64,000 nucleotides of DNA from Patescibacteria group bacterium (GTDB taxonomy: Bacteria > Patescibacteriota > Patescibacteriia > 2-12-FULL-60-25), in NCBI GenBank assembly GCA_028688515.1, contig JAQTXZ010000002.1, forward strand, positions 25,791 to 89,790, written 5' to 3'. This document shows, piece after piece, positions 13,899 through 64,000 of this stretch. Both the position numbers and the translations under genes were made by a program. Positions within the stretch are counted from its first letter, which is position 1; each line of letters opens with the position of its first letter. The notes below the pieces were generated by a model. The model ran no database searches and was not told where the DNA came from. It saw only the letters and a list, made by a program, of their open reading frames with translations.

Positions 13899-13911
13899 AA
13901 TTCTTAATTTT
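13798..13911 (-). repeat. composite repeat element (inverted copy of 5754-5843) with 3 tandem GAATATCCGCTTCGCT units
   Basis: Direct reading. Fills the spacer between the flippase stop (13913) and the ligase-like gene, and is read through as coding. Confidence 0.85.
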
Positions 13912-20793: not shown

Positions 20794-23340
20794 CTAAGCT
20801 CTCATTTTTTTATAGATATCGCTGCCGATTGCGGGGATCAGACCGAGTGCGACGGTCATCAGGAAAAGGCTGACGGGAATGGAAGTTAGGCTTAATTTAA
20901 AGTTTATGTGCGGTAGGTAAATCATGCCGACAAAGGCAACGAGCATCACCGTGTAGACGACGAGAAAAGTTTTGTTTTTTAGAATATCGCCGGTCAACAA
21001 TTCCGGTTTGCGGTAAGAGGCGGCAGTGATGACGTTGAAAAGATTGCTCCAAAGTATTACGCTAAAGCCGAGCGTACGCGCAGTTTCCACGCTGGCCCCG
21101 TATTTTAAAGCTAAATAATAAGTTGCAAAAGTCAAAGCAAAGATACTAATGCCTTGCACCAGTATGCGCAAAAATCTTTTGATTGAGATAATGGGTCTTT
21201 TTGGATCAAGGGGTTTGCGTTTGGCGATATCCGCCTCTGCGGGCATTGCCTCAAACACCAAAGAACAAGTGGGGTCTATAATCAGTTCTATCAGAACGAT
21301 GTGAATCGGTAAAAGCAAAGAGGGCATGCCCATAAGCGGAACGACCAGAGCAATTAAAATCACGTAAATGTGAATGCCGAAAATGTAAGAGATTCCTTTT
21401 TGTATGTTGTCATAAATGCGGCGCCCGTCGTGGATGGTGCTTACGACCGTATTCAATTGATCGTCCATCAAGATCATGTCCGCGGCTTCGCGTGCCACGT
21501 TCGTGCCGCCTAAGCCCATGGCAATACCAACATCGGCTTCTTTAAGCGAGGGTGCGTCGTTGACTCCGTCGCCGATCATGGCGACGATTTCTCCCGCCGC
21601 CTGCAGTGCGCGTACGATCTTGAGTTTTTGTTCCGGTTGAACGCGTGCAAAGATTTTGATGCCGTGAATTCGCGATGTCAGTTCCTCGTCCGTCATAGCA
21701 TCTATTTCCAGGCCGGTCATTATTTTATTTTTGTGATTGATGCCAACTGCCGTTGCGATGTGCAGTGCTGTTTTTGGATGGTCGCCGGTTATCATTCGCA
21801 CGGCGATTCCGGCGCGTTCGCAGGCCAATACAGCTTGTTTGGCTTCGGTTTTTGGAGGATCGCGAAACGCAAGCAGAGAAATGAATTCAAAATTATCGGC
21901 TTTTGATAAAGTCACCGGCAAAGCGCCGCGAACGTTCTTTTTCGCCAAAGCCAGAACGCGCATGCCGCGTGCAGAAAGTTTATCGACGTTTTTAAGTAAG
22001 AGCTTCTTTTCTTCCGCGGTCAGTTTTGATCGTTCGATGATTTGTTCTGCGCCGCCTTTGGCGTAAAGAGTCGTTTTGCCGGCATTCTTCCAAGCGTAAC
22101 CTATAAACTTCAATTTGTTGTCAAAACCGTATTCGCGCGTCAGGGCATTTTTTGATTGAAGGCTGTCGATATCAACGCCGGATTGTTTTGCTGTTTCAAA
22201 GATGGATAGATCTGCCGGATCGAACGGCTCCGACGGACAGGCGAGCATCGCATCTTTCAAAAACTCCTCACTCTTCATGTTCCGCCCCTCGCTGCCAATC
22301 ATGTCCTGCAGTTCCATTCGGTTGACTGTCAGTGTCCCCGTCTTATCAGTACAAAGCGTCGTTATACTGCCGAGCGTTTCGATGGCGTTGATTTTTTTTA
22401 TGAGGGCATTCTTTTTTGTCAGGCGATAAGCGCCGAGCGCGGCAAAAACAGCCAATACGACCGGCAGCTCTTCGGGAATTACGGAAATGGCAAGGGTAAG
22501 CCCTTTTAGCAGGCTGTCGATGAGATTTTTTGTGTTGGCAAAATTAATAAAAAATAGGGAGATGCAGGAAAACAAACCAATAATGCCGAAGATCTGCACG
22601 AGTCTTCTTGTTTTTTTCTGCAGGGGAGTGGGCGATTCGTTGATCTCAGCCAACGACTCTCCAATGCGTCCGTACTGCGTTTTGGTTCCAACGGCGGTGA
22701 CTTTTATTACAGCTTGACCGGTCAGGCATAGCGTTCCCGCGAATACGGAGTTCGAATCTCGAATATCCGCTTCGCTGAATATCCGCTTTGCTGAATATCG
22801 AATATCACTTTTGGTTGATTCCAAATCGAGTTTAGAGTTTCGAGTTTCGAAATTCGCTTTATGTATTGAACCGGATTCGCCGGTCAGCATCGATTCATCG
22901 ACCGAAAAGTTGGATGAGTCCAAAATCATGCCGTCGCCTGCGATGCGCTCACCCTCGCGAACAACCAGCGCGTCGCCTACAACAAGCTCATCGTTATTGA
23001 TGGAGATCAGTTTCTCGTCGCGGATAACGCTTATCTTTGGGGTTGAGAGTTCTTTTAGCGCGTCCAAGGCTTTGTCAGTCTTCGCTTCTTGATACAGATC
23101 AATGCCAATCATCAGCAAGACGCCTATCAGCATCAAAAAACCATCCCATGCTTCGCCGACCAAAAAGTAAATGAGCGCGGTCGCGAGAAGCAGCAACAAC
23201 ATCGGCTCGTTAAAGATTTGCATGACGTAATCAAAAAAGCCCTTCTTTTTCTTTTTAAAAAGAACATTGCCGCCGTTTTTTTGTCTGCGCACGGCTTCTG
23301 ATGTTGAAAGACCTTTAAAATGATCGTACTGCAACGACAT
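20794..23340 (-). CDS. P-type cation-transporting ATPase (P2, Ca2+/cation type)
   Basis: CTDKTGTLT, MITGDHPKTA and GDGVNDAPSLKEADVGIAMG motifs. Carries an in-frame repeat insert (DIRYSAKRIFSEADIR). Confidence 0.93.
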   Translation of the reverse strand: MSLQYDHFKGLSTSEAVRRQKNGGNVLFKKKKKGFFDYVMQIFNEPMLLLLLATALIYFLVGEAWDGFLMLIGVLLMIGIDLYQEAKTDKALDALKELSTPKISVIRDEKLISINNDELVVGDALVVREGERIAGDGMILDSSNFSVDESMLTGESGSIHKANFETRNSKLDLESTKSDIRYSAKRIFSEADIRDSNSVFAGTLCLTGQAVIKVTAVGTKTQYGRIGESLAEINESPTPLQKKTRRLVQIFGIIGLFSCISLFFINFANTKNLIDSLLKGLTLAISVIPEELPVVLAVFAALGAYRLTKKNALIKKINAIETLGSITTLCTDKTGTLTVNRMELQDMIGSEGRNMKSEEFLKDAMLACPSEPFDPADLSIFETAKQSGVDIDSLQSKNALTREYGFDNKLKFIGYAWKNAGKTTLYAKGGAEQIIERSKLTAEEKKLLLKNVDKLSARGMRVLALAKKNVRGALPVTLSKADNFEFISLLAFRDPPKTEAKQAVLACERAGIAVRMITGDHPKTALHIATAVGINHKNKIMTGLEIDAMTDEELTSRIHGIKIFARVQPEQKLKIVRALQAAGEIVAMIGDGVNDAPSLKEADVGIAMGLGGTNVAREAADMILMDDQLNTVVSTIHDGRRIYDNIQKGISYIFGIHIYVILIALVVPLMGMPSLLLPIHIVLIELIIDPTCSLVFEAMPAEADIAKRKPLDPKRPIISIKRFLRILVQGISIFALTFATYYLALKYGASVETARTLGFSVILWSNLFNVITAASYRKPELLTGDILKNKTFLVVYTVMLVAFVGMIYLPHINFKLSLTSIPVSLFLMTVALGLIPAIGSDIYKKMRA

Positions 23341-49929: not shown

Positions 49930-50065
49930 GTATACCGTCTAGGTATATGTGAAGTCGGCTGAAGTGAAGGCGGTAAAATTGAACTGTGCTCTACCGCCGT
50001 AACGGAAGCCGATTTGGGCGTAGCTGGGCGTTAGCCACAACGCAGGCACATATACCTTGTTGTAC
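49930..50065 (-). repeat. attC-like site A (distal, partly degenerate)
   Basis: Plus strand: ATTTCGTATACC-G-TCTAGGTATATGTG...CACATATACC-TT-GTTGTAC-GATGT. Confidence 0.55.
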
Positions 50066-50087
50066 GATGTTGTTGTGAAAATTTATT

Positions 50088-50792
50088 TCATTTCTTTGCA
50101 ATAATAAGTGCAGTGTTCAAATGCTCATAAGCAACACTAATTTCCGAAAAGCCTGCCTCCTTCAGCCAGTCAATTTGATCCTCAATCGGGGCAAGCAAGT
50201 TCAGAAATTTATGATGATAAGCCCATTCTTTAAGTGATGGTTCGTTGCGAGCATGTTCGACTAGGTGATGAAAATGCTGAGCATCATTAATGGCCGCCTT
50301 GGTTTTAGCTTTGTACGTGACTAAATCACCAAATATGAACACACCGCCAGACTTTAAAGAGCCGTAGATTTTTCTGAACAATTTTTTCTTACCTTCGTCT
50401 TTCTGATGATGGATACCAATAACAGATATAACCATATCGAAGTCGTCATCCAGGTTAATTTCAGCATAATCACCTAGGATATATGCGACGTTGTATTTTG
50501 ATAATCGCTTTTTTGCTCCGTCCATCATTTTTTCAGAAAAATCTACAGCCGTTAATGATGCGGTCGGGATAAGTTTCAGTATCTTTTCTGAAGTAAGCCC
50601 GGTTCCAATACCAAGCTCCAATATTCTTTCAACCTTGTTAGAAGCAATATACTCACGGGCGACCTCCTCAAATTTTTTATGCAGCTCATCATGACCTGGT
50701 ATTGAACGGCGAATATCATCGTCATAAATTTCTGACTCATACGAATCATAATTTAGATCGCCCGCAGCAACATTTGTGGTTCGATCATCCAT
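50088..50792 (-). CDS. cassette gene: class I SAM-dependent methyltransferase
   Basis: Motif I ILELGIGTGLTS and post-I AVDFS. Paralogue of 51691..52383 and 40239..40946. Confidence 0.8.
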   Translation of the reverse strand: MDDRTTNVAAGDLNYDSYESEIYDDDIRRSIPGHDELHKKFEEVAREYIASNKVERILELGIGTGLTSEKILKLIPTASLTAVDFSEKMMDGAKKRLSKYNVAYILGDYAEINLDDDFDMVISVIGIHHQKDEGKKKLFRKIYGSLKSGGVFIFGDLVTYKAKTKAAINDAQHFHHLVEHARNEPSLKEWAYHHKFLNLLAPIEDQIDWLKEAGFSEISVAYEHLNTALIIAKK

Positions 50793-50844
50793 ATTGTTAT
50801 TGCAAAGAAATGAATTGATAAGAGTAAATTTTCACAACAATTTC

Positions 50845-50983
50845 GTACAACGTTTCTGAATATCTGAAGTTTGCCAAAATTCCTTTAAAAATCAATTAGT
50901 TTTGGCAAATTTGGGTGAAGATATTTTGCATTCCTTAGCTTTTAATTGTGAAAAATTCCTGAACCGGATATGCCGTGTTATGT
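50845..50983 (-). repeat. attC-like site B
   Basis: ATTTC-GTACAAC-GTTT-CTGAATATCTGAAG...CCGGATATGCC-GT-GTTATGT-GATGT. Confidence 0.65.
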
Positions 50984-51007
50984 GATGTAGCCAGAAATTT
51001 CTATTCC

Positions 51008-51394
51008 TTAATTATTTTTGGTTTCTTTGTTTCTGTATGCATATAAATACAATGCAATAAATAATGGGATAAAAATAACAATATTAATTGTGGCAATAAC
51101 AGGTTGAGACAAGCCGCCCATATCTTTCTCTACTGTCTCTTGAACGACTTGTGACAATGGCAAAATATATTGTTGAAAAATATTCCAAACTATATATCCG
51201 CCAAAGAATATTTTCCAGAACATTAAACTAAACCATCTTTTTTGCCAACAGAATGCAAATAGCCCCACCATGGCTACCAACATAAGAGCAACATCAATAA
51301 CTTCCCAAACTCTTGAGAATCCTTGCCACAAATATGTTGGAATTATAGCAATTAAAAGAAACCAAAAATAAATTTTCCAAAAAGTTTTTTTCAT
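51008..51394 (-). CDS. cassette gene: 4-TM small membrane protein
   Basis: 128 aa with four hydrophobic helices. Confidence 0.6.
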   Translation of the reverse strand: MKKTFWKIYFWFLLIAIIPTYLWQGFSRVWEVIDVALMLVAMVGLFAFCWQKRWFSLMFWKIFFGGYIVWNIFQQYILPLSQVVQETVEKDMGGLSQPVIATINIVIFIPLFIALYLYAYRNKETKNN

Positions 51395-51500
51395 AATGTT
51401 ATTTGGTTAAAAATTAAATATATTTCATTATACACAAGTTATACCGACCACGAAATAAATTACCAAACAAATCTTAAAAAAAGAAATTTTTGGCTATTTC

Positions 51501-51600
51501 ACTTAACGTATCCGAATAAACGAAGTTCGTTTGAAACGCAGTGAGAACGAATTTGCGAAAATGCCGAGCCGAGGCATTTTCCGTTTATTCGGTGTTAGAC
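51501..51600 (-). repeat. attC-like site C
   Basis: ATTTC-ACTTAAC-GTAT-CCGAATAAACG...CGTTTATTCGG-T-GTTAGAC. Confidence 0.75.
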
Positions 51601-51690
51601 GAGGGTTTGTTTCGTCCTCCTATTATATCAATATTCAAAGGCAAAACAAAAGCGCAGCGTCCCCTTGCGTATGCCACAAACATAAATTAT

Positions 51691-52383
51691 TTACTTTTTA
51701 GCAAAGAATACAGCATAATTCATATATTCCCAAGTACTTCTCGAGTCAGAAAAGCCAGCGTCCCTTAGCCATTGCAATTGCTCATTAACCGAACTTGGCA
51801 AGTCCTCCTCTTTGTAATTATCAAACCAATATTGACCTTCTTTTGTCCCGAGATTTTTGATGAGAAAAGCCCTCCACTCTTCCTCTTTTGCAATAGTTTC
51901 TTTTTCTGAATCAAATTTGACAATATCCCCCAATACAAAGATACCACCACTTTTAAGATGATTGAAAATTTTCTTGAACAATTCTTTCTTTTGTTCACCA
52001 GTAAGATGGTGAACGGAGAGTACGGCCACACCAGCGTCGTAATGTTTTTCCTTAAGTTCAAGGTCTTTAATATCTTGCTCGATAAAATGAACATGACTCA
52101 GATTATCCCTTAAGCGAGTTTTGCCCTGTTCAATCATCTTGGGGGATATGTCAAATCCATCAATTACCGCTTGAGGATATTTGTTTAACAAGTGGAGGGC
52201 GGTTTTTCCAGTACCGATACCGAGATCCAATAATACTGGCTTTTCTGACGTTGTATTCACAAGGTCAATTACACTTTGATGCATTTTCTCATAATTTGGA
52301 ATGAGCTTTTTTATTAAAGCATCATAATCATGGTATTTCGCTTCAAAGTGTTCCTTGACTAAACTGCTGTGTTCATTTTCCAT
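51691..52383 (-). CDS. cassette gene: class I SAM-dependent methyltransferase
   Basis: Motif I LLDLGIGTGKTA. Same C-terminal extension ending FFAKK/IIAKK as 50088..50792. Confidence 0.8.
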   Translation of the reverse strand: MENEHSSLVKEHFEAKYHDYDALIKKLIPNYEKMHQSVIDLVNTTSEKPVLLDLGIGTGKTALHLLNKYPQAVIDGFDISPKMIEQGKTRLRDNLSHVHFIEQDIKDLELKEKHYDAGVAVLSVHHLTGEQKKELFKKIFNHLKSGGIFVLGDIVKFDSEKETIAKEEEWRAFLIKNLGTKEGQYWFDNYKEEDLPSSVNEQLQWLRDAGFSDSRSTWEYMNYAVFFAKK

Positions 52384-52414
52384 GAAAATTAATTTAGTTT
52401 TTGTGGCATATTTC

Positions 52415-52491
52415 GCCTAACGTTTCCGAGTATCTGATGTTGCGAAGCAATATGGGTGGAGCGAAGCGGAACCAGATACTCGGTGTTGTAC
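52415..52491 (-). repeat. attC-like site D
   Basis: ATTTC-GCCTAAC-GTTT-CCGAGTATCTG...CAGATACTCGG-T-GTTGTAC-GATGT. Confidence 0.8.
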
Positions 52492-52618
52492 GATGTAGAT
52501 TTTTTATCGTCGTCTTTAGTGGTACTTACGATATTTATTTTAAAAGAAAATTTGATTTTTTGTTTTGAAAAATTAAAGAGGGGTAGGGGGTGAATTTCAT
52601 TTTTCAAAGCTTATTATT

Positions 52619-53545
52619 CTACTTCTCAAGTAAGGGTCTTTGAAGCTCTGGGTTATTTTCGTCGATTTCGGCCATTTTATTTACTGGTATCAAATCAGCT
52701 ATAGATTCTTCACGTTTCCAATTTTGTAAAATATCCCAAATATTTCCTTCGCCAATGTAATCCATAGTTAGCTCACTTCTTTTTGCTTCATATTGCGGAT
52801 AAAGTACACTTTGCGGGTCTTTGATAAATCTTTCAGCAAAATCTTCTGTCCCATTGTAAACATCAGTAATCCATTCGGGTCTCAAGTCTAGTGTGTTTAC
52901 TTCTTTTTCCATTTCAATATTCATAGTTTTGAAGAGAGGATGAACTATTACATCATCGGAAGGTATAGAAAATTCAACAACAGGAAGTCCCTCTTTGTGA
53001 CCAGTGCGTGATTCAGCGGGATTGTGAGGGGGTTGATAAGAAGCTCCGACTGAGACTGAATTAAGTCCTGTCAAGCCCGGAAAATCACCACCGGGACCAA
53101 TATGCAGTTTGAATAATTTAATTCGAGGTATTTTGTGTTGAACAAAATTTCGATAACTATCTAATGAAAAATTGTCTGATAATTCAGCAAAGTCTTTTTC
53201 AAGTTGTGCGTAAATATCCTCTTGTTCAAGAAAACTTCGTAACGCATCTTTAATTCGTTTCGAATTTTTTTGAAAAGATTCTGCCGCATTAGGATTCTCC
53301 AAAACTGCATTTTGGGGATGGTTTAAAATTGCATTCAGTTCTTCATAACTAACCAATCTAAAATATCTGACAGGATTACCTTTGCTATCCTTGTCGGCGG
53401 CGGTTAGTATTTCCCGCTTACGTTCCTCTGGAAATAGATTGCGGGTTAACGATATTCTTTCTTCAATTGATGTGTCGGTAGCAGTAAGGCGAGAAATTAG
53501 AACATTTCGATTAATGTTTTCTGGCGTTGGCATTGCTTCGTTCAT
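52619..53545 (-). CDS. cassette gene: hypothetical protein
   Basis: 308-aa ORF bounded by sites D and E. No motif recognised. Confidence 0.6.
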   Translation of the reverse strand: MNEAMPTPENINRNVLISRLTATDTSIEERISLTRNLFPEERKREILTAADKDSKGNPVRYFRLVSYEELNAILNHPQNAVLENPNAAESFQKNSKRIKDALRSFLEQEDIYAQLEKDFAELSDNFSLDSYRNFVQHKIPRIKLFKLHIGPGGDFPGLTGLNSVSVGASYQPPHNPAESRTGHKEGLPVVEFSIPSDDVIVHPLFKTMNIEMEKEVNTLDLRPEWITDVYNGTEDFAERFIKDPQSVLYPQYEAKRSELTMDYIGEGNIWDILQNWKREESIADLIPVNKMAEIDENNPELQRPLLEK

Positions 53546-53638
53546 AAACCCCTTTATTATATTATTAAAAAAATGAAATTTTCTGTCTTTTTAAAATCAT
53601 TTAAACCCTATTTTACCACGAGATAAAAAATTTATTTC

Positions 53639-54256
53639 GTACAACGTTTCCGAATATCTGAAGTTGCGCCCGTGTTTATTGGTTAAAACTTCAAACATTC
53701 TACTATCTTAATTATATCACTAAACTTTGTTTTATCACAGCGCAATTTGAGTGGAACAGAAAAGAAAATCACAAATATTTTCCTTATTTTAAGCCCTTTT
53801 TTTGAATTTTTTGAAAGTGCTATGGACAAAGACTGAAAAATATGCTATAGTCTAGTGTCCAGTGGATTTCCCGCTGGCATACCTTACAAAGGAGGACATT
53901 ATGAGGATCGCTTTTCTTCTGGTAGCATTGTGGAATACGGTGGTGGCAGCAATTAACGTCAATATATTGCCGTTGTATATGTCACCGGAAGCCATGGTAT
54001 ATGTAACACCGTTATCACAGCTTCTTCCAATCTGTATACCACTCGTAATTGCGGCAGCATTGCCAAGTGGAGGCAATTCAATCACGCTCAACGACCTTCG
54101 CAAATGTTTGTCGTAAGCAATTCACGACTTACCCCCTGGTGGAATCTATTTCTACCAAGGGCTCTTTTTTTCAAAAAATTCAAAAAAAGGGCCATATAAA
54201 TTGTAAAAAATATTTGTGATTTTCTTTTCTGTGTAACCAGATATTCGGTGTTAGAT
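53639..54256 (-). repeat. attC-like site E, interrupted or expanded by a 477-bp IR-flanked module
   Basis: Left half ATTTC-GTACAAC-GTTT-CCGAATATCTG. Right half CAGATATTCGG-T-GTTAGAT-GATGT. The two halves are 590 bp apart. Confidence 0.55.
53901..54116 (+). CDS. small 2-TM hydrophobic protein inside site E (reverse orientation, own promoter and SD)
   Basis: ATG is 6 nt after AAAGGAGGA. TGGACA-17-TATAGT lies upstream (about 53823-53850). MRIAFLLVALWNTVVAAINVNILPLY.... Confidence 0.5.
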   Translation: MRIAFLLVALWNTVVAAINVNILPLYMSPEAMVYVTPLSQLLPICIPLVIAAALPSGGNSITLNDLRKCLS

Positions 54257-54355
54257 GATGTTTTGCCGACTCTGCAAGCTACAAATTACTTTATTGGAAC
54301 AAACTTTTTATCTGCACGAACATTTTTTAGTTTCTATATTACAAGGCGAAATTTC

Positions 54356-54422
54356 ATCTAACGTCATCGCGATATCTGACGTTTTAATGTGGCGAAGCCC
54401 TTGCAGATATCGCGTGTTAGGC
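54356..54422 (-). repeat. attC-like site F
   Basis: ATTTC-ATCTAAC-GTCAT-CGCGATATCTG...CAGATATCGCG-T-GTTAGGC-GATGT. Confidence 0.8.
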
Positions 54423-54439
54423 GATGTAAAGCCCAAAAA

Positions 54440-55309
54440 TTAATTTATAACCGCCATTAATGTTCTTTCTTTGCCAAATTTATTATAATCTTCTTTTGCT
54501 AAGGATAGACTATACGGAACGAAGGCTTGATCAATTAAACTTTCTGTTTTTTGATAAATGGTTTCAAAAAATTTTTTGTGTTGCACCGTGGCTTCAAAAC
54601 CATCCGTGTAAAAAACCACCAAATCTCCCTTGCTTAATCCGATTTCTCCAAAATTCATAAACTTTTCAGCTTCATTTTCACCGGTTAATGCGCCGTAAGA
54701 AACACATTTATTTTCAACGATTTTTTTGGCGTTGTTTCTATATTCAGACCTGATCATCTTGCGGTACTTAGGCATGGCAAAATTGAAATCGGATTTTTGC
54801 AGATTTGATTTTTCATATTCTTCAAACGTCTTCATCCAATTCGGTGTCTGAAATTTAATTTTGCCATTTTTATCATAAACAATAATTCCACAGTCACATA
54901 TTCCAGCCCAGAATAGTTTGCCGTTATAAATAATTCCACCACTGGCAACGCAGCCAAAAAAATCATTTATCAAGTAATCAACTTTTTTAGTATTGTCTTT
55001 GTTCAACTCGGCAATCTTTTTATTTCCAAAAATAAATGCGTTTCTGATTGTTTTTAATGAAGGAATTTTGTTATCTAGAGATTTTACAAACGATTCACAA
55101 AAAATATCAGCTGAAAAACGGGCACCACTTGGATTTGGATAATTTTTCAGAGAATCTTCTATGGACAAGTTTGTAAAATCTTTTGGAGAAATTGGATCTC
55201 GTGTAATTCCATCGGCAACACAAAAAATTTTTCCATCAACCATCATTGAATCTTCCGGAGGCATTAGATGTCCGTATAATAAATTTGGCAAAGATACTTT
55301 ATAAATCAT
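54440..55309 (-). CDS. cassette gene: PP2C/SpoIIE-like phosphatase-fold protein (tentative)
   Basis: FCVADGITRD and VVFYTDGFEA resemble the two Asp-containing PP2C motifs. Confidence 0.4.
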   Translation of the reverse strand: MIYKVSLPNLLYGHLMPPEDSMMVDGKIFCVADGITRDPISPKDFTNLSIEDSLKNYPNPSGARFSADIFCESFVKSLDNKIPSLKTIRNAFIFGNKKIAELNKDNTKKVDYLINDFFGCVASGGIIYNGKLFWAGICDCGIIVYDKNGKIKFQTPNWMKTFEEYEKSNLQKSDFNFAMPKYRKMIRSEYRNNAKKIVENKCVSYGALTGENEAEKFMNFGEIGLSKGDLVVFYTDGFEATVQHKKFFETIYQKTESLIDQAFVPYSLSLAKEDYNKFGKERTLMAVIN

Positions 55310-55333
55310 AAATTAATTTTTGGGCTTTATTTC

Positions 55334-55451
55334 GTCTAACGTTCCGGGCTATGCGAAGACCGCCTCAAGCGGTTTTGGGTGAGCGTCCTAATTCGCTTTA
55401 GCTACCTAAATACTAGCAAAACCGTCGCGAACCGCATAGCCCGAGTTAGCT
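55334..55451 (-). repeat. attC-like site G
   Basis: ATTTC-GTCTAAC-GTTC-CGGGCTATGCG...CGCATAGCCCG-A-GTTAGCT-GAAGT. Confidence 0.75.
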
Positions 55452-55673
55452 GAAGTATTCCTTTTCTTTTTTCCTTGATTTTACTGTTAAAATTTTTAAA
55501 TTTCTTTTTCTTTTCTGTGTGGAGGGCAAGAGGGGAAATAAAGGGGTGAATTGCCCGGAGCTACTAAAAAACTTTACTACATATAAAAAGGAAGGGGTTT
55601 AGGTTGGGGGTGGGGTGGGGTGGGGTGCTTTTTATTTAGGTTTGATTCCTAAAATTTTAATGTAAACTTACAG

Positions 55674-57929
55674 TTACTTATCAAATGTAACTATACCCTG
55701 TGCCTTGTTGTAAATATCAATTTTATTATCTATATCTACACGATTTACCAACCAACCAAGTAATTCGCATTGATGCACAAAATCATTAATTCTATTAACA
55801 CCATTAATCTCTTTTAATGTCACAACCAAACCAAAATTAATATCATTACTGCGCCTACTCAATCTTTCTTTTGATTTAACGCTGAGTCCCCACATGCCTT
55901 TATCGTAAACATCGCGTGCAAGAACTCTATCTGTAAAAATTTCATTTATATGTTTAGTGTTGTCCCATTTTCGGTAAAATTTCCTGGCGTTACCTTCGTA
56001 TATATAATGTTTTTCACCGTCATTATTATTTTGACAATTCTTGTTTATAGACTTGATGCCCTTGCCTTTGATTCTACCAAAATATATATCTAGCTCCGTG
56101 TTTGTGTAATCAACTCCTTGATTAATAGAGCAACTGGGGAAATAACATAAGGTAGCTTTAGCAACAAAAGGGTGTTTATTGTTATTTATTGGAACAGGTA
56201 AATTATAAGCATATGTATCCCATTTTTTAGAGATACCACTAATAATAAACTTTATTTCATCATTATCCGCTTTTATAATGTTTTCTATATTTTTAGGTAC
56301 TACACCATGACCCACAAAGGGTGCTAATTTAGTATTATTACCAATGCTATTCCACCCAGCAGCAGCATCTATAATTAGTGCTTTTGCGACTTCTCGGTTA
56401 AGCCCAAGGACTTCTATTAAATAAGCAATTTTTCGTGTTACCCATGGAGCTGCGTATGAAGTACCACTACATAAGCCTTCGCCAGTTGGCGTGCACACCC
56501 TAAGATAATCGCCTTTATCACCGCCATAACTGCTAACGTCTGGTTTATTAAAAAATGATAAAACTAACCCCTTTCTTGAATAGGTTGCTGGAGACCCCTT
56601 ACTATTTACCGAATTTACAACTATAGCGTTAATTGAATCGGCGGGTGAGCCAATCATTTTTTCCACTCTACTTTCATCGTCGCGTTTATTAGTACCTGCT
56701 ATTACAAAAATAACATTATTTTCGTATTGAATTTCGTCTAATATAGCAGCTTCTGGTGATATAAAATTGGGATTAATTTCTCTATCGGATCCCAAAGATA
56801 GATTCCATACTGTTATATCGGGATTTGAAGTAACTATCTCTCTTATGGCCTTCATAATAGAAAAAGCACTATACTGTCCTTGTGCGGCTACGCCAAAATG
56901 CCTAACTTTAAATCTACCACACCCATCATCTAGCTCTGGGTGAATAGTTGGCCCATCAACAATAATTGAACTTACCGATGTTCCGTGAACATAATCTTTG
57001 GATTCCGTAGGTATCTCCTCATTGATCATTTTTCTAAAATCCACCCATTCAGAAAAATATACTGATTTATCAAATAAAGTATCTATTACCCCTACAATAG
57101 GTTCGTCTTTTGGTGGGTCTATTGTTTTTATAGTCGCATCGCTGCTTGCGTCATCAACAACCTCCTCAAAACTTAGTTTAGATATATCTTCTGTCGACAT
57201 TGCAATAAGATAAGGAGCCTTGTCTGACAAGAGTTTAATTTCGTCTGGATATAAAAGTAAGGTGGTTTCACTTAGTATTTTATCAGGCTGAATATTTATA
57301 CCGATCCCTTTCATCAATTCAGTTAAATCGACATTTGTTTTATATACTGTAATTATCGATCTATTGTTTGTATTCGCGCTATTATTAGGAACCTTAAAAC
57401 CTTCTATATAATGTGAATCTACAATTATATTTCTAAAATTTGTTTTTGTGACCCCATATTTTTCATACTTAATATTTTTATCATTTAAACCACTAATCAA
57501 ATCGTGGGTTATCTTTCCGTTAAATATTTCATCTAATAGCTTTATACAGCCTTCTAATTTTTTAATTGTATCCTGAATTACTTTTTCGCTAACATGATGC
57601 GTAATCACATGTTTTCTTGTCACTTCATTAGCAAATCTCGCACCAACAACAGAATCATTTACAGAGCCACTATTTGATAATAGCCCACTTATCCTATTGC
57701 TCTTAGCGATGACGTCGATATAACAAACATCAACTAGGCAACCTTTGATAATACTTTGTCTAGTCCAATAATCAGCTAAGGCATTAAGCTGACTAACAAA
57801 AGACTTTAGTTTATCAGAATCTATAGATGGGGAATTTTTAGGAATGTTACGAGAGCTTGGCCGGATATCATGCGAGCGTTCCTGAAGAGTTCCTTTTAAT
57901 TGAAGTATGTTATTCATAATTTTAGACAT
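55674..57929 (-). CDS. S8 (subtilase) serine peptidase with ~290-aa unknown N-terminal domain (IetS-like)
   Basis: Catalytic contexts VGVIDT (D), HGTSVSSII (H), WNLSLG (N) and GTSYAAPWV (S). Confidence 0.85.
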   Translation of the reverse strand: MSKIMNNILQLKGTLQERSHDIRPSSRNIPKNSPSIDSDKLKSFVSQLNALADYWTRQSIIKGCLVDVCYIDVIAKSNRISGLLSNSGSVNDSVVGARFANEVTRKHVITHHVSEKVIQDTIKKLEGCIKLLDEIFNGKITHDLISGLNDKNIKYEKYGVTKTNFRNIIVDSHYIEGFKVPNNSANTNNRSIITVYKTNVDLTELMKGIGINIQPDKILSETTLLLYPDEIKLLSDKAPYLIAMSTEDISKLSFEEVVDDASSDATIKTIDPPKDEPIVGVIDTLFDKSVYFSEWVDFRKMINEEIPTESKDYVHGTSVSSIIVDGPTIHPELDDGCGRFKVRHFGVAAQGQYSAFSIMKAIREIVTSNPDITVWNLSLGSDREINPNFISPEAAILDEIQYENNVIFVIAGTNKRDDESRVEKMIGSPADSINAIVVNSVNSKGSPATYSRKGLVLSFFNKPDVSSYGGDKGDYLRVCTPTGEGLCSGTSYAAPWVTRKIAYLIEVLGLNREVAKALIIDAAAGWNSIGNNTKLAPFVGHGVVPKNIENIIKADNDEIKFIISGISKKWDTYAYNLPVPINNNKHPFVAKATLCYFPSCSINQGVDYTNTELDIYFGRIKGKGIKSINKNCQNNNDGEKHYIYEGNARKFYRKWDNTKHINEIFTDRVLARDVYDKGMWGLSVKSKERLSRRSNDINFGLVVTLKEINGVNRINDFVHQCELLGWLVNRVDIDNKIDIYNKAQGIVTFDK

Positions 57930-58968
57930 TTAGTTCTCTCGAAACTTGGCTTTTAGAAACTCCTGTTAATATTTCTATTTCTCTAACCGTAAAACCGCTG
58001 TGTTGTAATTTTTTTAAATCTATCTTGTTGTCTTTAGTCCGTATAGATTCATATAATTTTTTTAAGTAATCGTATTCATTATTTGGATCACTAAACGCTA
58101 GTGCGGTTTTAATTATATTTTTTAAATCACCGGGATAAGGAATATGATCTAATGTTAAAAATATTTTTTTAAATAGCCTCATATTGCGACTAGCGAATTT
58201 AAATTTTGTTAAAAACTCATTTAACATTGATTCTGCGACTTCAATCAATTCTTCTTTGTTATATCTATTAAAATTTATAGTTGAATCAAATCTTCTAAGT
58301 AACGCCTTATCGAATTGCCCAAAAAGATTAGTGGTGGCTATAAGTACGATTTCATCACTTAATCCATCCAACCCTTTTAAAACAGAAGATGTTACTCGAC
58401 CCATTTCTCGTAAATCATTAGAATTAATTCTATCTAGAGCTATTGCGTCTATCTCGTCAAACAAAATAATCACTTTTTCTGGGTGAGGTAATCTACTTAA
58501 CTCTGTAAAAACGGAAGCAATGTTTTTGGACGTTTGGCCAAGCTTGCTATCAATAACACTATCAAAATCTATCGCATATAAATCACGTTCAAGAATACGA
58601 GCAATCTGTTTTGCGGTTTCAGTTTTACCTGTTCCAGGATCACCCTCAAATAAGAACTTACTAACTCCAATTTTATGTCCAATTGAATTTATAATGCCCA
58701 CTATATCGTTTTTTATAAGAGTGGGGAGGGGGAAGGAGTTACTACTATCTAAGTTCACTCTCATAAAAAATGGAAGGCTGTATTCGTTGTCCTGTGGTAC
58801 AAAAGTATTAGCACCAGACAGCAAAGCCATAATATATTGAGCCAATTCAGAATCTCCAGTAGAATCGAAGTACCTAGCTATATCATAAGCTTCATTTTTA
58901 AAACCCGCCTCATTTTTTTCCGCATGGTATTTAATTAAATTTAAAATATTTTTTTTGCGCATATACAT
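57922..58968 (-). CDS. AAA+ ATPase with C-terminal HTH (IetA-like)
   Basis: Walker A GDPGTGKTETA, Walker B ILFDEIDAI, ATTN sensor-1. C-terminal FTVREIEILTGVSKSQVSRELN. 8-nt overlap with the S8 gene. Confidence 0.88.
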   Translation of the reverse strand: MYMRKKNILNLIKYHAEKNEAGFKNEAYDIARYFDSTGDSELAQYIMALLSGANTFVPQDNEYSLPFFMRVNLDSSNSFPLPTLIKNDIVGIINSIGHKIGVSKFLFEGDPGTGKTETAKQIARILERDLYAIDFDSVIDSKLGQTSKNIASVFTELSRLPHPEKVIILFDEIDAIALDRINSNDLREMGRVTSSVLKGLDGLSDEIVLIATTNLFGQFDKALLRRFDSTINFNRYNKEELIEVAESMLNEFLTKFKFASRNMRLFKKIFLTLDHIPYPGDLKNIIKTALAFSDPNNEYDYLKKLYESIRTKDNKIDLKKLQHSGFTVREIEILTGVSKSQVSRELNV

Positions 58969-59231
58969 TTTTTTAATGAAATGAATTTATGTTATCCATA
59001 CTTTATATTAACATATTTGGGACACCAGTACAACAAAATGGGACACAATAATAAAAAATTGCGATTTCATTGATGTTTTGCCTTTCATATATTTAATCCT
59101 ATTAATGCAAAAAACGCCTTAACTAGGCGTTTTCCGTTGCTGTCTTTAGCTTAAACAATATATGAAATTTCACTTTTTCCATTAGAACCACATTTTTTGT
59201 GCATTTTCCATGCTGGTTTTGATTTATTTAG

Positions 59232-60395
59232 TTACCGATTTCCCTTTGCCCTATTATGCGTCTTACACAACATCTGACAGTTTTTTGTTGCAGTTTTACC
59301 GCCTTTGCTCCAAGCGGCAACATGATCTGCATCCATATCACTCAAGCTCCAAATTTTATCTATGTTTGCATCGTGGCCTATTGCACAATGTGGGCAGTTT
59401 GAAACACCTTTTTCCTTTGCAGTAGCGGTTTGAACTTCGTAAACTGACCGCTTAGTCGGGTCATCAAATACACGCACCTCCAGTAATTTTTTATCAACCT
59501 CACCACCTAAAACATATTCGAAAATCCCTCGTCGATTCTTTACGTAAGCATCACCGTACAGCTTCTGTACTGAAGCGGACACTTTAGCCGGGTCGTATTT
59601 TTTCTTGTGGTAAGTTTTGTAAAGCCTGTTCCACTCAAGACCTTTCATTTCGCTTTCAACGTCTGTGAACGTGGTTGAAACCCAGTCGATAACAGTATTA
59701 AAATGCTTTTTTAATTCGGTTATATTTTTATCATTACGGTGCATGCTCATATAATTGTCGATCGCACCATCAGAAACCCAATCCAAAGCACGCTCCAAAT
59801 ATGCTTGGCGCTTAATGTCACCAGCAATGTACGTGCTCCACTTCTGTACGTTTGCGTTTTGGCTATTACTAAACTCTTCGCGCGCCTTGGTAACAAAAGG
59901 CCCTGAATAAACAGCGTTCAAGATTTCTTGCTCTGTCAGTGGCACACCAGCGATATTGATAGTTTTAAACCAATCCTTAATTTCAGGTTCGTCACCTTCA
60001 CATACATACACTAGTAATTTAGTGTCCATTATTTGCTCACGCTGACTACTAGCCATGCCACTGAAATACTGTTCATGGCCATTTTTATCTTTGACAGCAA
60101 ACTTACCTGCCACAAACCGACCAATACTTGTGATGCGTTGCTGTCCGTCGAGCACTTCAAATATATCAGTACCTGCTTGGTTAAAATAAATTAAACCTAT
60201 CGGATAACCTTTCAAAATTGAATCGATCACCGCAACGTCTCTTTTACCATCGGCATAAATGTAATTACGTTGGTACTCTGGCTGAATAGTTAACTTGCCT
60301 GACAAGCCAAACAAGCCTTTTCCTTCCAGTTCGTTATAAACAAAACCGTCGCAAATTTCTTTTATAGTGATGTCTTTTTTTAGGGTTGTTTTCAT
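59232..60395 (-). CDS. DUF262 (ParB/GmrSD N-terminal-like) + HNH nuclease fusion
   Basis: [12 protein letters not shown] motif. C-terminal CPHC...DADHV...[18 protein letters not shown]/zinc-hook. Confidence 0.8.
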
Positions 60396-60397
60396 AA

Positions 60398-61552
60398 CTA
60401 TTTTTGCAGTTGTTTAACTAATAATCGCGGAAATGTTTGACGATAAAGTTTTTCATTTACAATGTAATAAGTTTTGTTTTTAAGTGGTTCACTAATTTTT
60501 AAAACTGCACCATCATTTAATTTAGTTACCTTACTTTTTTCATTATTTTCTCCGACCTGTATTTGTTCAGGATAGGTTTTGGTAGCAGCACCGAACCAGG
60601 TTTTAGTTAAACCCAGAATTTCAAATTGATCAGGATTGTACTTATCTAGAAACGAAACAGGAACCCCCATAACACCATTGTAATTGCTAGGGATAGCGTC
60701 GACAAAAGGAACTTCAATTGCGTTAAAATTATCATATTTTTCGTACGCTTGTTTTCCTTGCAGTTTTTTGTTGAATTTTTTGTTATCACTCATAGACATC
60801 AGACTCATGGGTTGATGGCGACGACCGTGATCAAGATTAGTGAACCAACCCACGTTTCCAAACGACTGAGTTGAGCCATCGGGTTTATTAAATACTTTGA
60901 CTTTACTATATCCAAACCATATTTTATTGTCCTTAACCAACGGAAAGATTTCTTTTAGAGTAATAGAGTTTTGATTACCTATAATAAGAAAATTCCTTTT
61001 ATATTCTACTAGCTGTGCCACGTACTCACGAAATAAACTAAATGGTGGATTAGTCACCACAATATCACTTTTCTTAAGAAGTTCTATACATTCGTCACTA
61101 CGAAAATCACCGTCGCCGTCAAGAGGAGTCCATTCGTTATTTTTATTCGCTCGAAGTTGTTGTGCAATATCTTCTAGTGTAAAGGACCCGTCGCCGTCTA
61201 TATCGCCAACTTCGTTGATAATAAATTTGTTAGCAGTGATTTTAGGTCTCCCCTTTGATTTGGTAAGAGTTTTGTCATCGCCAAATAATCCCAGTTGTGT
61301 ATTGGCTACGGGTGAGGGTTTGTAACTCGTTGAAATAAGTTTTTTTAGGCCCAAACGATCAAAGTTTAATACAAAATAACGAAAGAAATTGCTTTCGTAT
61401 GGGTCGTCGCAGTTGCTGTAAATTACCTTATTTTTAAAAGTATTTGGGTTATACTCAAGATAAGATTCAATTTCTTTCTGAATATCTGAAAATTGCGTAT
61501 AGAATTCATCATTTTTTGCTTTTTTTGCTTTTGTGAGGTTTTTGTTTGCCAT
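60398..61552 (-). CDS. N6-adenine DNA methyltransferase, EcoRI-methylase-like family
   Basis: NDEFYTQ N-terminal motif and TNPPFS (NPPF) catalytic motif. ATG at 61552 (the TTG at 61573 is an alternative). The stop is 2 nt from the DUF262-HNH start. Confidence 0.8.
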
Positions 61553-61863
61553 ACATTCAATATATTCCTCCAATTACATTAATAAATCAAGATATTAATA
61601 TAAAATTAGATTTTCGTAGAAACTCCTTATAACCCCCTCTAAAATTAAATCCCAACATTATGAAAAGAAAAAGAAATTTGAAAATTTTACTAAATGGCTT
61701 TGTTCGTAGCTAAGAAAAAAGAAAAGGAATATTTCAGCTAACTCTTTTTTATACGAAAACACTTCGTATAGCTATCCACATCTTGCCACTTAGGCGAAAA
61801 AATGTATAGAATGGATTAGGTGTGAAGAGTTGACGGCCTCACTAATTATTAAAGTGAGGTTTT

Positions 61864-62679
61864 ATGTTAGATGAACAATTGAAGCGGACGTCGGACGAGA
61901 TGGTTTTGCGTAATTACAGTCAAAAAACGGTTAAGGCGTATGTTGGTTGTATTGAGGATTATCTAAGTCAGAATCAAGCGGACTTATATTGGTGTGATAT
62001 CGAGGCGATCCGTCAATTTTTGCTGGAGAAGCAGTCAAGAGGGTTGGCGCCGCAGACTATCAATCTATATCTAAACGCCATAAAGTTTTATTATCGTGAT
62101 GTTTTGCATTTAGGCGACACGATCAATCTAAAATTCGCTAAACGCTCGAAGAAGCTACCGGTTGTTCTGTCGAAAAGCGAAGTTTTACGAATCATTGACG
62201 CTGTCAGCAATCCAAAACATAAAGCGATGATCGCTTTGGCATACGGTGCCGGCCTTCGTGTTAGCGAGGTCGTTAAATTGCGGATCGGGGACTTGAATTT
62301 GGAGGAGTTGACCATCCATCTCAAGCAAGCAAAGGGAAACAAAGATCGGATTACCATCTTGTCTGCATCTATAGTAAATGATTTAAGACGGTTGATGACT
62401 GGAAGGTTGGTCGGCGATTTTGTGTTTGCCAGTGAACGCGGAGGGAGATTGACGGAGAGGACGGCGCAAAAGATTTTTGAACATGCCCTTAAAGCCGCCC
62501 GAATCGGTCGGGGAGCGACATTTCATTCGTTGAGGCACAGCTTCGCGACTCATCTTTTGGAAAATGGAGTTGATGTCAGGTACGTTCAGGAACTTCTTGG
62601 TCACCAGAATATTCGGACTACGCAGATTTATACGCACATAACCAATCCGGCGATGCGGCGGATTGTAAGTCCGCTATGA
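61864..62679 (+). CDS. tyrosine recombinase, IntI-like but without the IntI-specific insertion
   Basis: N-terminal SAM-like YSQKTVKAYVGCIEDYL. Catalytic contexts AGLRVSE (R), HSLRHSFATH (H-x-x-R) and LLGHQNIRTTQIYTH (H...Y). C-terminal ...RRIVSPL resembles IntI1 ...GVRSPL. Confidence 0.9.
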   Translation: MLDEQLKRTSDEMVLRNYSQKTVKAYVGCIEDYLSQNQADLYWCDIEAIRQFLLEKQSRGLAPQTINLYLNAIKFYYRDVLHLGDTINLKFAKRSKKLPVVLSKSEVLRIIDAVSNPKHKAMIALAYGAGLRVSEVVKLRIGDLNLEELTIHLKQAKGNKDRITILSASIVNDLRRLMTGRLVGDFVFASERGGRLTERTAQKIFEHALKAARIGRGATFHSLRHSFATHLLENGVDVRYVQELLGHQNIRTTQIYTHITNPAMRRIVSPL

Positions 62680-64000
62680 AGTTTACAGATTTCGCTGCCA
62701 AGCAAAAACCCGCAGTTATAATGCTTTCATTCTTGTCCGGCATCGCTATCCATTCCTTTTTCCCGCTGACGCCGGTTCCGACATTTGTTTGGTGGGGGAT
62801 TGCAGGTTTGATGTTGGTCGGTCTCATATTCAGAAAGCCCCTCTCCTGCTCGTGTGGGAGAGGGGTTGGGGTGAGGGCGCAGCGGTGGGACAGCGATGAT
62901 GTTGTTAAACAAGGGATTCCTCGACTGCGTGCCTTTAGTTTGGGCACTACGCTCGGAATGACAATGAGTTTTTTAGTGATAGGTCTCCTCCGTTTCGACA
63001 TCGCAATTCCTCGCGCGATCGACATCAAAGAGTCGCAAACTTTTGTCGGCGTTCTGACCGACGTCAACGACGGACTCTTCGGCAAACAGGGCACTATTGC
63101 CATTCAACCCCCCTTTTCCAAAGGGGGCAGGGGGAATCAACTTATAACAATTAACCTCAAAACCTCCCTCCCTCTCGGTTCCGCTATTAGCTTCTCGTGT
63201 GCATTAAAACCGGTTGCGCAAAAACCTGACGAGCTTGATCGACGGTTTGCGTATCGTCTGCATTTTTCTCAAGCAACCTGCTCGCCGAAAGATTTGACCG
63301 TTATCAAGCCGCCTGCGTGGTGGGATGTGCGGCAAAGTTTTGTCGAGCTGCGCGCGTGGACGAACTTGCGCATCAAATCCATATTGCCCGGCGACGAAGG
63401 TGCATTGATTGCGGGGATGCTTTACGGCGAACGTGGCATGTCGCAACAATCGAATAATCTTTTTCGCAACGCAGGTCTCACTCACTTGATCGCCGTCTCC
63501 GGTTCAAACATCACGATCGTCGCGTCGATCGTTTTTGCAATTTTGCTCGGCATTGGGCTTTGGCGCAGACAGGCGTTTTGGGTTACGACCGTGACGCTGC
63601 TCGCGTATGTGACGTTTACCGGCTTTTCTGCTTCGGTCGCGCGCGCGGCCGTGATGGGTTGGCTGGTTTTGTTTGCGCGCTACATCGGGCGTCGTCCAAA
63701 AACTTGGCATGTGCTGCTCGTGTCCGCATTTGCATTGTGTCTGCTGGACCCGTGGATGCTGGCATTCGACGCGGGATTTGCGCTTTCATTTTTGGCGACA
63801 ATCGGTCTCATGAGCTGGTCGCCGATATTCAGTCGTCTCTTAAAGTTTTTACCCGAGATTGGCGGTCTGCGTGAGGCTGCAGCGACGACAATCTCTGCGA
63901 CATTGATGACGACTCCTTACATGGCTTTTGCTTTTGAAAAGATATCGCTCGCCGGACTTGTCACGAACTTGATCGCTGTTCCTCTCGTGCCTTGGGCCAT
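62676..64000 (+). CDS. comEC: DNA internalization competence protein ComEC/Rec2 (3'-truncated by window edge)
   Basis: Frame is open from ATG 62676 to the window end (absent from the ORF track because there is no stop). GLTHLIAVSGSNITIV and SASVARAAVMG competence-domain motifs. ATGA overlap with the recombinase stop. Confidence 0.85.
   Translation, partial: MKFTDFAAKQKPAVIMLSFLSGIAIHSFFPLTPVPTFVWWGIAGLMLVGLIFRKPLSCSCGRGVGVRAQRWDSDDVVKQGIPRLRAFSLGTTLGMTMSFLVIGLLRFDIAIPRAIDIKESQTFVGVLTDVNDGLFGKQGTIAIQPPFSKGGRGNQLITINLKTSLPLGSAISFSCALKPVAQKPDELDRRFAYRLHFSQATCSPKDLTVIKPPAWWDVRQSFVELRAWTNLRIKSILPGDEGALIAGMLYGERGMSQQSNNLFRNAGLTHLIAVSGSNITIVASIVFAILLGIGLWRRQAFWVTTVTLLAYVTFTGFSASVARAAVMGWLVLFARYIGRRPKTWHVLLVSAFALCLLDPWMLAFDAGFALSFLATIGLMSWSPIFSRLLKFLPEIGGLREAAATTISATLMTTPYMAFAFEKISLAGLVTNLIAVPLVPWA

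Follow-up and report, generated by a model that had tools for sequence, protein, structure and literature searches.

How gene cassettes could be captured and kept in an ordered array beside a tyrosine recombinase that lacks the integron-specific domain is the question raised by a locus in a Patescibacteria (candidate phyla radiation) genome. We analysed a window of 64,000 nt from this genome, and coordinates are positions in this window unless a related locus (L001 and so on) is named. From 49.9 to 61.75 kb the GC content is low, at ~35% compared with 48-55% to either side; all sizeable open reading frames (ORFs) of this block are on the - strand, and the recombinase gene is on the + strand at the proximal end. 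As in an integron, seven co-oriented cassettes are arranged divergently from this gene, and the same layout is found in related loci. The cassettes are C1 (50059-50851), C2 (50977-51507), C3 (51594-52421), C4 (52485-53645), C5 (54250-54362; 113 bp and without an ORF), C6 (54416-55340) and C7 (55445-61742). Between them lie short palindromic elements, which on the + strand have the form AAC-GTTT-[10-12 nt stem]...[complementary stem]-T-GTT, and the two ends of each cassette carry inverted repeats that are private to that cassette. Our preferred and, on balance, probable reading is that a Patescibacteria chromosome here carries a cassette array of integron type, in which the private repeats form the outer stem of a folded single-strand site.

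The terminal repeats had been reported for six cassettes in an initial annotation, and all six pairs were confirmed in position and in match count: 50059-50085 with 50825-50851 in C1 (25/27), 50977-51000 with 51484-51507 in C2 (20/24), 52485-52505 with 53625-53645 in C4 (18/21), 54250-54267 with 54345-54362 in C5 (15/18), 54416-54445 with 55311-55340 in C6 (27/30), and 55445-55474 with 61713-61742 in C7 (28/30). For C5 these are the full arms, and in the other cassettes the arms reach further. In C1 the left (GTT-side) arm is 50059-50107 and the right (AAC-side) arm 50794-50851, and a second segment of 21 nt is added to the first; in C2 the stem continues to position 26 (50977-51002 and 51482-51507), and in C4 21 of 24 nt are paired (52485-52508 and 53622-53645). 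The left arm of C6 consists of 54416-54448 and 54466-54487 and its right arm is 55275-55340 (33 nt at 91% plus 20 nt at 100%), and C7 has arms of 55445-55515 and 61662-61742, the latter abutting the attI-like site (31 nt at 97% plus 28 nt at 96%). With gaps, complementarity goes on to 49-72 nt in C1, C6 and C7.

In the core (positions 1-7, counted inward from the GTT) each end matches its own partner at 6-7 of 7 positions, against 3-5 of 7 for the ends of neighbours. Positions 8-12 read GATGT on each GTT side, except for GAAGT in C7 and GAGGG in C3, and GAAAT on each reverse-complemented AAC side. The mismatch described previously therefore stands as it was given, at positions 10 and 11 in five pairs (GATGT versus GAAAT) and at position 11 only in the 55445/61742 pair. 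At positions 13-30 the own-end matches in C1 to C7 are 16, 15, 3, 11, 8, 18 and 17 of 18, against 5.6 +/- 2.1 for non-self pairs; the observed sum is reached by 2 of 5040 re-pairings of the ends, and a match of at least 15/18 is reached by four true pairs only, among 23,905 GTT/AAC pairs in the array. In six of the seven cassettes the gapped local score is 38-90, where shuffling gives maxima of 28-38, and the pairing of C5 taken alone has no significance in this score. The private inverted repeats are real, far beyond chance, and reproducible in other genomes.

C3 (51594-52421) had been described as the only cassette without an extension. This was not borne out: the extension is present and is shifted by a 67-nt insert after position 9, and the status of C3 as a true exception is ruled out once an insertion is allowed. 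Its left arm (51594-51715) is composed of the core, the insert and the displaced extension, and its right arm is 52365-52421. The core at 51594-51602 pairs with 52413-52421, the insert occupies 51603-51669, and pairing resumes between 51670-51715 and 52365-52410 (14/18 at an offset of +65; gapped score 38 against a shuffled maximum of 28), giving a branched stem on folding. Inserts of 39-79 nt are found in related arrays, always in the GTT-side arm and always after position 9, at L003 6126-6178, L008 3980-4032, L006 9081-9121, L012 2718-2772, L014 5650-5705, L020 6254-6292 and 7210-7265, and L005 513-591 and 1028-1073. An insert is seen directly when homologous cassette ends of three genomes are aligned, where L006 reads GTTATACGC-TG-TTCAAAAAATATTTTTC and both L003 and L008 read GTTATACGC-[53 nt]-TTCAAAAAATATTTTTC. 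Cassettes with inserts fold as a circularised hairpin with a side branch.

The inserts have some features of their own. They start with GGGTGAG, CCCGA or TCCGAG, most of them contain GCGCAGC or a near variant, and GGGTGAG is also a conserved motif inside the junction hairpins. The hairpin to the left of C3 together with the insert is homologous to L013 2010-2186, and the body of C3 is homologous to L006 9103-9878, which places a breakpoint at the border between insert and extension. The idea that the inserts are self-folding hairpins was rejected on account of their weak predicted energies (-3 to -7 kcal/mol), and a group II intron or insertion sequence was set aside because they are too short and no family was matched.

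The recombinase has more than 550 relatives in species-representative genomes, among which the closest (50-84% identity) come without exception from metagenome-assembled genomes of Patescibacteria. Exact-stem and mismatch-tolerant hairpin scans gave many false positives at low stringency and were replaced by a covariance model of the junction elements built from 23 copies. This model finds 38 copies (E below 0.01) in 14 related Patescibacteria loci, all of them upstream of the recombinase gene and on the recombinase-sense strand. Cassette boundaries in the related arrays were set by consecutive sites, and the terminal repeats were not used for delimiting. Private stems are present in 33 of 46 cassettes, starting at position 13 in 23 of them and after an insert of 39-79 nt in 10. 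In the 24 cassettes with an uninterrupted stem, a set that was picked for a visible stem, so that 33/46 is the less biased figure, standard pairs fill 91.5% of 624 cells; the share falls to 63% on shuffling and to 41-50% when the partner is slid. Compensatory changes occur in 22 of the 26 stem pairs of this set, and the mean identity between cassettes is 0.34 at positions 13-24 against 0.75 at positions 1-12. Thus in homologous arrays the stems are present, their sequence covaries, and the position of the imperfection is kept. The initial annotation had named two outcomes that would speak against its proposal, namely lack of significance over a shuffled background and absence from homologous arrays, and since the stems are both significant and present there, neither was found.

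In the distant loci L024-L041 (mostly Bacteroidota, with two DPANN archaea) no comparable long terminal repeats were found, and we therefore do not generalise the feature beyond Patescibacteria. Weak matches to the hairpin model (E 0.003-0.17) occur in five Bacteroidota loci (L025, L027, L029, L036 and L040), on the opposite strand and 3' of the recombinase gene. They adjoin I2-less relatives of the recombinase (35-44% identity), L027 also has tandem units of ~650 bp there, and no long private terminal repeats were seen at these loci. They could represent a related type of array in which the recombinase gene is inverted.

The initial annotation had assumed that classical integron cassettes share only a 7-bp core with their own R'', and this premise proved too strict. 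As a control, we compared the cassette start with the reverse complement of its own R'' flank in class 1 arrays from four plasmids. The match is 12/12 in aadB, aadA2 and aacA4, 11 nt in VIM-2, 8 nt in arr-3 and 6-7 nt in two others, after which it stops abruptly. Pairing of own ends past the 7-bp core is therefore not new in itself. What is new is the further private clamp of 6-20+ bp, the fixed wobble and mismatch, and the insertion point.

A long private stem might also arise as a by-product. If quasi-palindromes were corrected by intramolecular template switching in the excised circle, the palindrome would be extended outward from a functional 12-bp arm, selection would protect the TG/TT imperfection only, and the extension would have no function of its own. 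Variation in stem length (17-33 bp plus interrupted blocks to ~70 nt) and the unrelated extension sequences of different cassettes suit such a process, and so does C6, where complementarity apparently enters both ends of the ORF, which copying explains more easily than selection. Against it, the extension is near-universal across distant genomes with 92-100% pairing at positions 12-22, which suggests maintenance, and the stem resumes after inserts of 39-79 nt. We regard this explanation as unlikely, while giving it some weight; it is compatible with a folded outer stem and does not exclude it.

The imperfection that interrupts the stem has a fixed form. Because the AAC-side arm has TT where the GTT-side arm has TG, the + strand forms T·T plus T·G and the other strand A·A plus A·C. 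At position 11 the + strand has T·G in 23 of 24 cassettes, which is A·C on the other strand; at position 10 it has T·T in 15 of 24 (A·A on the other strand), a standard pair in 4 and G·T in 3. Of the fixed bulge proposed in the initial annotation, the fixed position stands across genomes; the two-nucleotide bulge does not, as the apparent folding strand has a T·T mismatch plus a T·G wobble. A second G·T, between the base after AAC and the base before GTT, is found in 37 of 45 sites, and at other non-standard stem positions G·T outnumbers A·C by 14 to 4. The same bias is seen in the 38 junction hairpins. Their + strand fold is the more stable in 30 of 38 (mean 1.5 kcal/mol, p = 1e-4), and on the + strand they have 49 G·T pairs and 62 C-GNA-G triloops (e.g., GCGAAGC), against 9 and 7 on the other strand.

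The + strand is antisense to the cassette genes and corresponds to the "bottom" strand of a classical integron, and in classical attC sites a bottom-strand excess of G:T mispairs and a GAA loop are tied to strand selectivity (PMC5027507). The suggestion in the initial annotation that the imperfection is a strand-choice signal fits the T·G at position 11, the G·T at the junction and the greater stability of the + strand hairpins, and parallels what is known of attC sites (PMC5027507). It is a reasonable reading; the imperfection lies outside the R box of classical sites.

The strand asymmetry also bears on whether the repeats act in RNA, where the 5' and 3' untranslated ends of a transcript would pair and affect stability, termination or translation control. 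In most cassettes the arms do fall in untranslated sequence at the ends; the second block of C1 directly adjoins the start codon and spans the stop codon, and many extensions combine an A-rich with a T-rich side, as do the flanks of bidirectional terminators. The conserved wobbles, however, are present only on the antisense strand and would be A·C mismatches in the mRNA. In addition, ORF-less mini-cassettes (43-113 bp) keep the arms, and the inner 12 nt are the same as the attI arm. A role in RNA thus seems to us highly improbable.

The elements between the cassettes, all read on the + strand, are the second component of the proposed folded site. A1 extends from AAC to GTT inclusive at 50849..50979 (model R1, 56 bits), and A2 at 51505..51596 has a perfect 11-bp L stem, CCGAATAAACG (R1, 88.6 bits). 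A3 (52419..52487) scores 83 bits, A5 (54360..54418) 53.9 bits and A6 (55338..55447) 61.3 bits, and A4 (53643..54252) has a 604-nt interior with an ORF in its loop. At the distal end of the array, A0 (49934..50061; R1, 55.7 bits) has ACC in place of AAC as its left triplet, and a relic right-end arm, ATTTCGTATACC, with the same change is seen at 49934-49945; A0 is probably a dead last site. AAC and GTT do not vary, there is covariation in the 11-bp inner stems, and the hairpin length ranges from 49 to 667 nt. The R-box letters agree only partly with RYYY/RRRY. The inner stems are perfect or near-perfect duplexes of 10-11 bp without the extrahelical bases of an L box, and the hairpin owes its asymmetry to two bulges, one of 3 nt that separates the R and L stems and one of 2 nt that lies distal to the L stem. 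The interiors share a plan (e.g., 52440-52476) of AAGTT, a first stem-loop, ATTTGGGTGAG, a second stem-loop and GAACC, and their sequence is conserved across genera. They are rich in mini-hairpins of the types GCGAAGC, GCGTAGC and GCCGAGC; such mini-hairpins form very stable DNA triloops.

The inner stem carries the motif TAT-N-CGA(A/T)G, like the R arm, followed by a 2-nt irregularity, and judging from this resemblance it would be a second recombinase arm. When the right end, hairpin and left end are joined as in a circle, the + strand folds into one uninterrupted hairpin, which is 10-25 kcal/mol more stable than the hairpin in the array context. This predicted fold has a 1x1 loop at position 10, and three nucleotides (TTT) bulge out where the outer stem meets the inner one.

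These features have to be set against a reading without any hairpin, in which gene modules lie between double-stranded Xer sites in alternating orientation and the repeats are inverted Xer sites. Such pdif modules are found on Acinetobacter plasmids; their XerC/XerD sites are double-stranded, 28 bp long, and have no short-range hairpins, arm covariation or private extensions. The present array resembles them as a chain of gene modules with inverted Xer-type sites at their borders. Its recombinase is Xer-like and has no I2, the conserved arms of 11-12 bp are as in dif, and as cassettes and some hairpin loops both hold genes and both start with GTT and end with AAC, alternating inverted sites can be read into the sequence. 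Double-stranded sites, however, need neither inner 11-bp stems that covary nor private complementarity beyond the arms, nor do they need G·T pairs (49 vs 9) and GNA triloops (62 vs 7) biased to one strand. The two inverted "sites" also differ systematically (3-nt bulge; TG vs AA). Stem covariation, private extensions and single-strand-specific features argue for folding, and the pdif-like arrangement is improbable in our judgement.

The attI-like site (61743..61801, + strand) lies beside the recombinase gene, where the right-end AAC of C7 is joined to TCTTTTTTATACGAAAACACTTCGTATAGC (61743-61772). The form AAC|T(C/G)GTT..TAT(A/G)CGAA is conserved beside the recombinase gene in most related loci, as is the site AAC|TCGTTTCTATACGAA... 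The sequence TATACGAAAA is found 8 nt from the junction together with an inverted copy, TTCGTATAG, and a further arm-like copy, TTAGGCGAAAAA, is at 61790-61801. The junction can be read as an arm (11), then 7-8 bp, then an arm (TATACGAAAA). TATACGAAA is the R-arm consensus of the cassette right ends and is repeated in this double-stranded site, and the AAC-side arm, when reverse-complemented, reads TT(A/G)TA(C/T)GAAAT. Because the arm sequence is repeated in the conserved attI-like site, positions 1-12 are read as an 11-12-bp recombinase arm. We infer from this repetition that positions 1-12 are the predicted binding arm of the adjacent recombinase and that the rest would be a clamp.

The ends of homology between loci point to the position of strand exchange. 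In L003 and L008 the shared sequence takes in a hairpin and the cassette on its right and breaks off 7 nt past the right-end AAC, and the homology of C3 to L006 stops 5 nt after AAC. Together with the own-partner specificity that begins right after the triplet, these ends support a crossover that would be located at the AAC/GTT triplet.

Combining these results, we propose that the junction element is the inner part of an attC-like hairpin. If strands were exchanged at AAC/GTT, the crossover would split one long hairpin; insertion would thus divide the outer (R) stem, and each cassette would keep both halves at its ends. Excision as a circle would reunite the halves and make the hairpin longer by 18-33 bp, and discontinuously to ~70 bp. 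The conserved positions 1-12 (GTT-RNRY-GATGT versus ATTTC-RYNY-AAC) would serve as an 11-12-bp arm for the adjacent Xer/IntI-like recombinase, and beyond position 12 the stem would act as a sequence-independent clamp whose complementarity is kept by selection or by palindrome correction. The wobble, the second G·T at the crossover and the GNA triloops may bias folding and recognition to the + strand. The imperfection, at the outer edge of the recombinase arm, would also be the hinge where the 39-79 nt of extra DNA branch out.

The recombinase gene (61864..62679, + strand) encodes a Xer/IntI-like tyrosine recombinase of 271 aa without the IntI-specific I2 domain. Among NCBIfam models, NF040815 (archaeal XerA/"integron integrase") scores 216 bits against a cut-off of 220, and TIGR02249 (integron integrase) scores 207 bits in two separate stretches, under its cut-off; the Pfam match is Phage_integrase. 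In the alignment with VchIntIA (2a3v), query residues 176-194 (19) face structure residues 179-240 (62), and compared with IntI1 (32% identity) the enzyme lacks ~45 residues at the IntI-specific domain. Archaeal XerA and XerC/D models and structures match best, and there is neither an arm-binding domain nor I2. The close relatives are all ~270 aa long and are named tyrosine recombinase, XerD or "recombinase/integron integrase" in their sources. The I2 helix or domain is regarded as the feature that confers single-strand recombination (PMC7790495), and it is required for bacterial and archaeal integrons alike (PMC9668308). Because the adjacent recombinase has no I2 domain, the different substrate geometry envisaged in the initial annotation fits the locus, where the hairpins are also without classical L-box extrahelical bases.

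That an enzyme without I2 can act on a folded single strand has a precedent in the integrative mobile elements exploiting Xer (IMEX) of the CTX-phage type. In these, a two-arm site is mimicked by a folded single-strand hairpin, on which an I2-less Xer recombinase exchanges one strand; the resulting junction is resolved by replication. This is the closest mechanistic precedent for such an enzyme, and points of resemblance are a Xer-type recombinase without I2, arms of 11-12 bp here, and an attI junction readable as arm, 7-8 bp and arm. Unlike such elements, the present locus has arrays of many small gene cassettes and a hairpin family with a long private clamp, and its attI-like site shows no evidence of being chromosomal dif; the cumulative GC skew in the window has no clear switch. 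Xer integration of CTX-type phages has been discussed previously (PMC7790495). A "Cand" subgroup of simple Xer-related tyrosine recombinases from candidate phyla has also been described, with a role in chromosome maintenance proposed by analogy with Xer (PMC8138268). The present enzyme is likewise Xer-related, ~270 aa long and from candidate phyla, and no cassette arrays were described for that subgroup (PMC8138268).

Several points weigh against a folded, integron-type site. I2, reported to confer single-strand recombination (PMC7790495), is absent from the adjacent recombinase. The recombinase family is very large, with >5,500 relatives, all ~270 aa, and the adjacent enzyme may simply serve these bacteria as housekeeping Xer. 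Neither an excised circle nor an empty site was observed. The stem halves are 0.1-6 kb apart in the array and hence cannot help excision in a simple way. Apart from the way in which the covariation set was picked, 13 of 46 cassettes were not counted as having an extension; nine of them show none, possibly because of missed sites or decay, and the other four are mini-cassettes (43-113 bp) too short to score, three of which show stems to position 15-18.

The cassette model also does not explain why 9 of 47 junction hairpins hold a whole ORF (71-175 aa) in a loop of ~370-640 nt. They are found at 53643-54252 in the window and at L001 1984-2456, L004 9197-9846, L011 135-766, L012 3587-4000, 4745-5215 and 5820-6217, and L023 361-1027 and 2995-3484. 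In the window (A4), the ORF is on the + strand (ATG at 53901, stop at 54116) and encodes a hydrophobic peptide of 71 aa with a promoter-like and Shine-Dalgarno-like lead; it is closed by perfect inverted repeats at 53756-53781/54207-54232 and 53793-53816/54169-54192. The loop ORFs outside the window are on the cassette-sense strand. Each loop ORF is closed by a private inverted repeat of 15-30 bp, which replaces the second inner stem-loop of the hairpin.

Compared with classical integrons, the locus has co-oriented cassettes that point away from a tyrosine recombinase gene, a conserved putative insertion site adjoining this gene, imperfect palindromes with covarying stems between cassettes, bounded by ...AAC and GTT..., and cassettes whose own two ends complete the R box, which is the classic argument for a crossover at G|TT. 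ORF-less cassettes and a multi-gene defence cassette are further common features, as is the enrichment of G·T pairs and GAA loops on the antisense strand (PMC5027507). In contrast to classical integrons, the recombinase has no I2 and the inner stem has a 3-nt spacer bulge and no extrahelical bases; own ends pair over 18-33 bp (~70 nt gapped), against 6-12 bp in the tested class 1 cassettes; the T·T/T·G imperfection is fixed at positions 10-11, which is also the insertion point; and the hairpin interiors are conserved in sequence across genera, with genes in some loops. Because both the I2 domain and the L-box extrahelical bases are absent, the array cannot be filed as an integron under the current definition, and these two features belong together functionally. 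To judge from the DNA features considered, all of which were found (layout, palindromes, R-box completion and bottom-strand bias), the array would work like an integron.

The prevailing view is that the gain of I2 enabled integron integrases to recombine folded single strands, and no natural intermediate or alternative has been known (PMC7790495). We tentatively suggest, as an idea with somewhat less than even prospects, that the locus is a natural gene-capture system of Patescibacteria, in which an I2-less Xer-type recombinase acts at a dif-like site beside its own gene and reads folded cassettes via the private clamp and the fixed wobble/mismatch hinge, not via I2-docked extrahelical bases. 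If true, either a stage of integron evolution from before I2 would have survived here, or the same problem would have been solved independently. Integron-like DNA beside a close I2-less relative of IntI and Xer makes the origin of I2 directly testable, and the private stems and fixed hinge can be mutated to study strand choice and hairpin stability without recognition of extrahelical bases. This is relevant to the reading of attC-type sites and to designing structure-specific recombination sites. Search tools requiring the IntI-specific domain would probably miss gene-capture platforms of candidate phyla, whose cargo here includes methyltransferases and a 6.3-kb anti-phage cassette. In a literature search that left most subscription journals outside its reach, no description of Patescibacteria or candidate phyla radiation integrons or attC sites, of integron-like or Xer-like arrays of cassettes or of extended R-box pairing was found.

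The cassette products include two S-adenosylmethionine methyltransferases, several proteins without an assigned function, and a defence-type set in C7. This single 6.3-kb cassette contains four genes of anti-phage type, which encode an IteS-like S8 peptidase (55674-57929), an IteA-like AAA ATPase (57922-58968), a GmrSD-N/HNH protein (59232-60395) and an EcoRI-like adenine methylase (60398-61573). Transposons are typically marked by terminal inverted repeats of 20-30 bp, and the cassettes might be regarded as small transposons or as elements resembling miniature inverted-repeat transposable elements, whose ends are recognised by a transposase. No transposase family, however, was matched among the ten scanned proteins, and there are no target-site duplications. 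The repeats are private past 12 nt, whereas transposon ends are common to a family, and at every end lies a conserved hairpin, oriented uniformly with respect to the recombinase gene. This explanation is scarcely credible.

Sequences shared among cassettes were also noticed. The ends of C7 (ATTCCTTTTCTT...) are found again in L002 and in a Nomurabacteria locus (L023 3482-6735). A module of ~75 nt, AAATTTGATTTTTT..TTTGAAAAATGAAAGAGGGGTTAGGGGTGAATTTCATTTTTCAAA, is present at 52548-52620 and, more weakly, at 55520-55560 in the window, and at L003 6234-6308, L006 3798-3868 and L008 4090-4162; it is located 3' of the ORF in the cassette sense, in otherwise different cassettes of four genomes, with 88-94% identity. 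At the right end (5' in the cassette sense), stretches of 100-180 nt are near-identical among different cassettes of one array, with 96-100% identity in L013 (625-794, 1864-2042 and 2798-2967), and between genomes the identity is 85-88% (L003 8081-8233, L008 5075-5229, L006 5698-5861 and L028 9-102). These near-identical right ends suggest a shared leader or promoter module.

An Rfam scan of the whole window gave four tRNAs only, and the array had no match. Immediately 3' of the recombinase gene (62679-64000), a ComEC/Rec2-like membrane protein is apparently encoded, as judged by eye from the raw sequence. This neighbour is also kept in L001 and L002 (72-80% DNA identity), and the recombinase gene is therefore in a conserved chromosomal context rather than on an obvious mobile element. 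Short repeats unrelated to the array, 35-71 nt long, 83-100% identical and in part inverted, occur elsewhere in the window at 5770-5844, 13795-13909 and 22752-22806.

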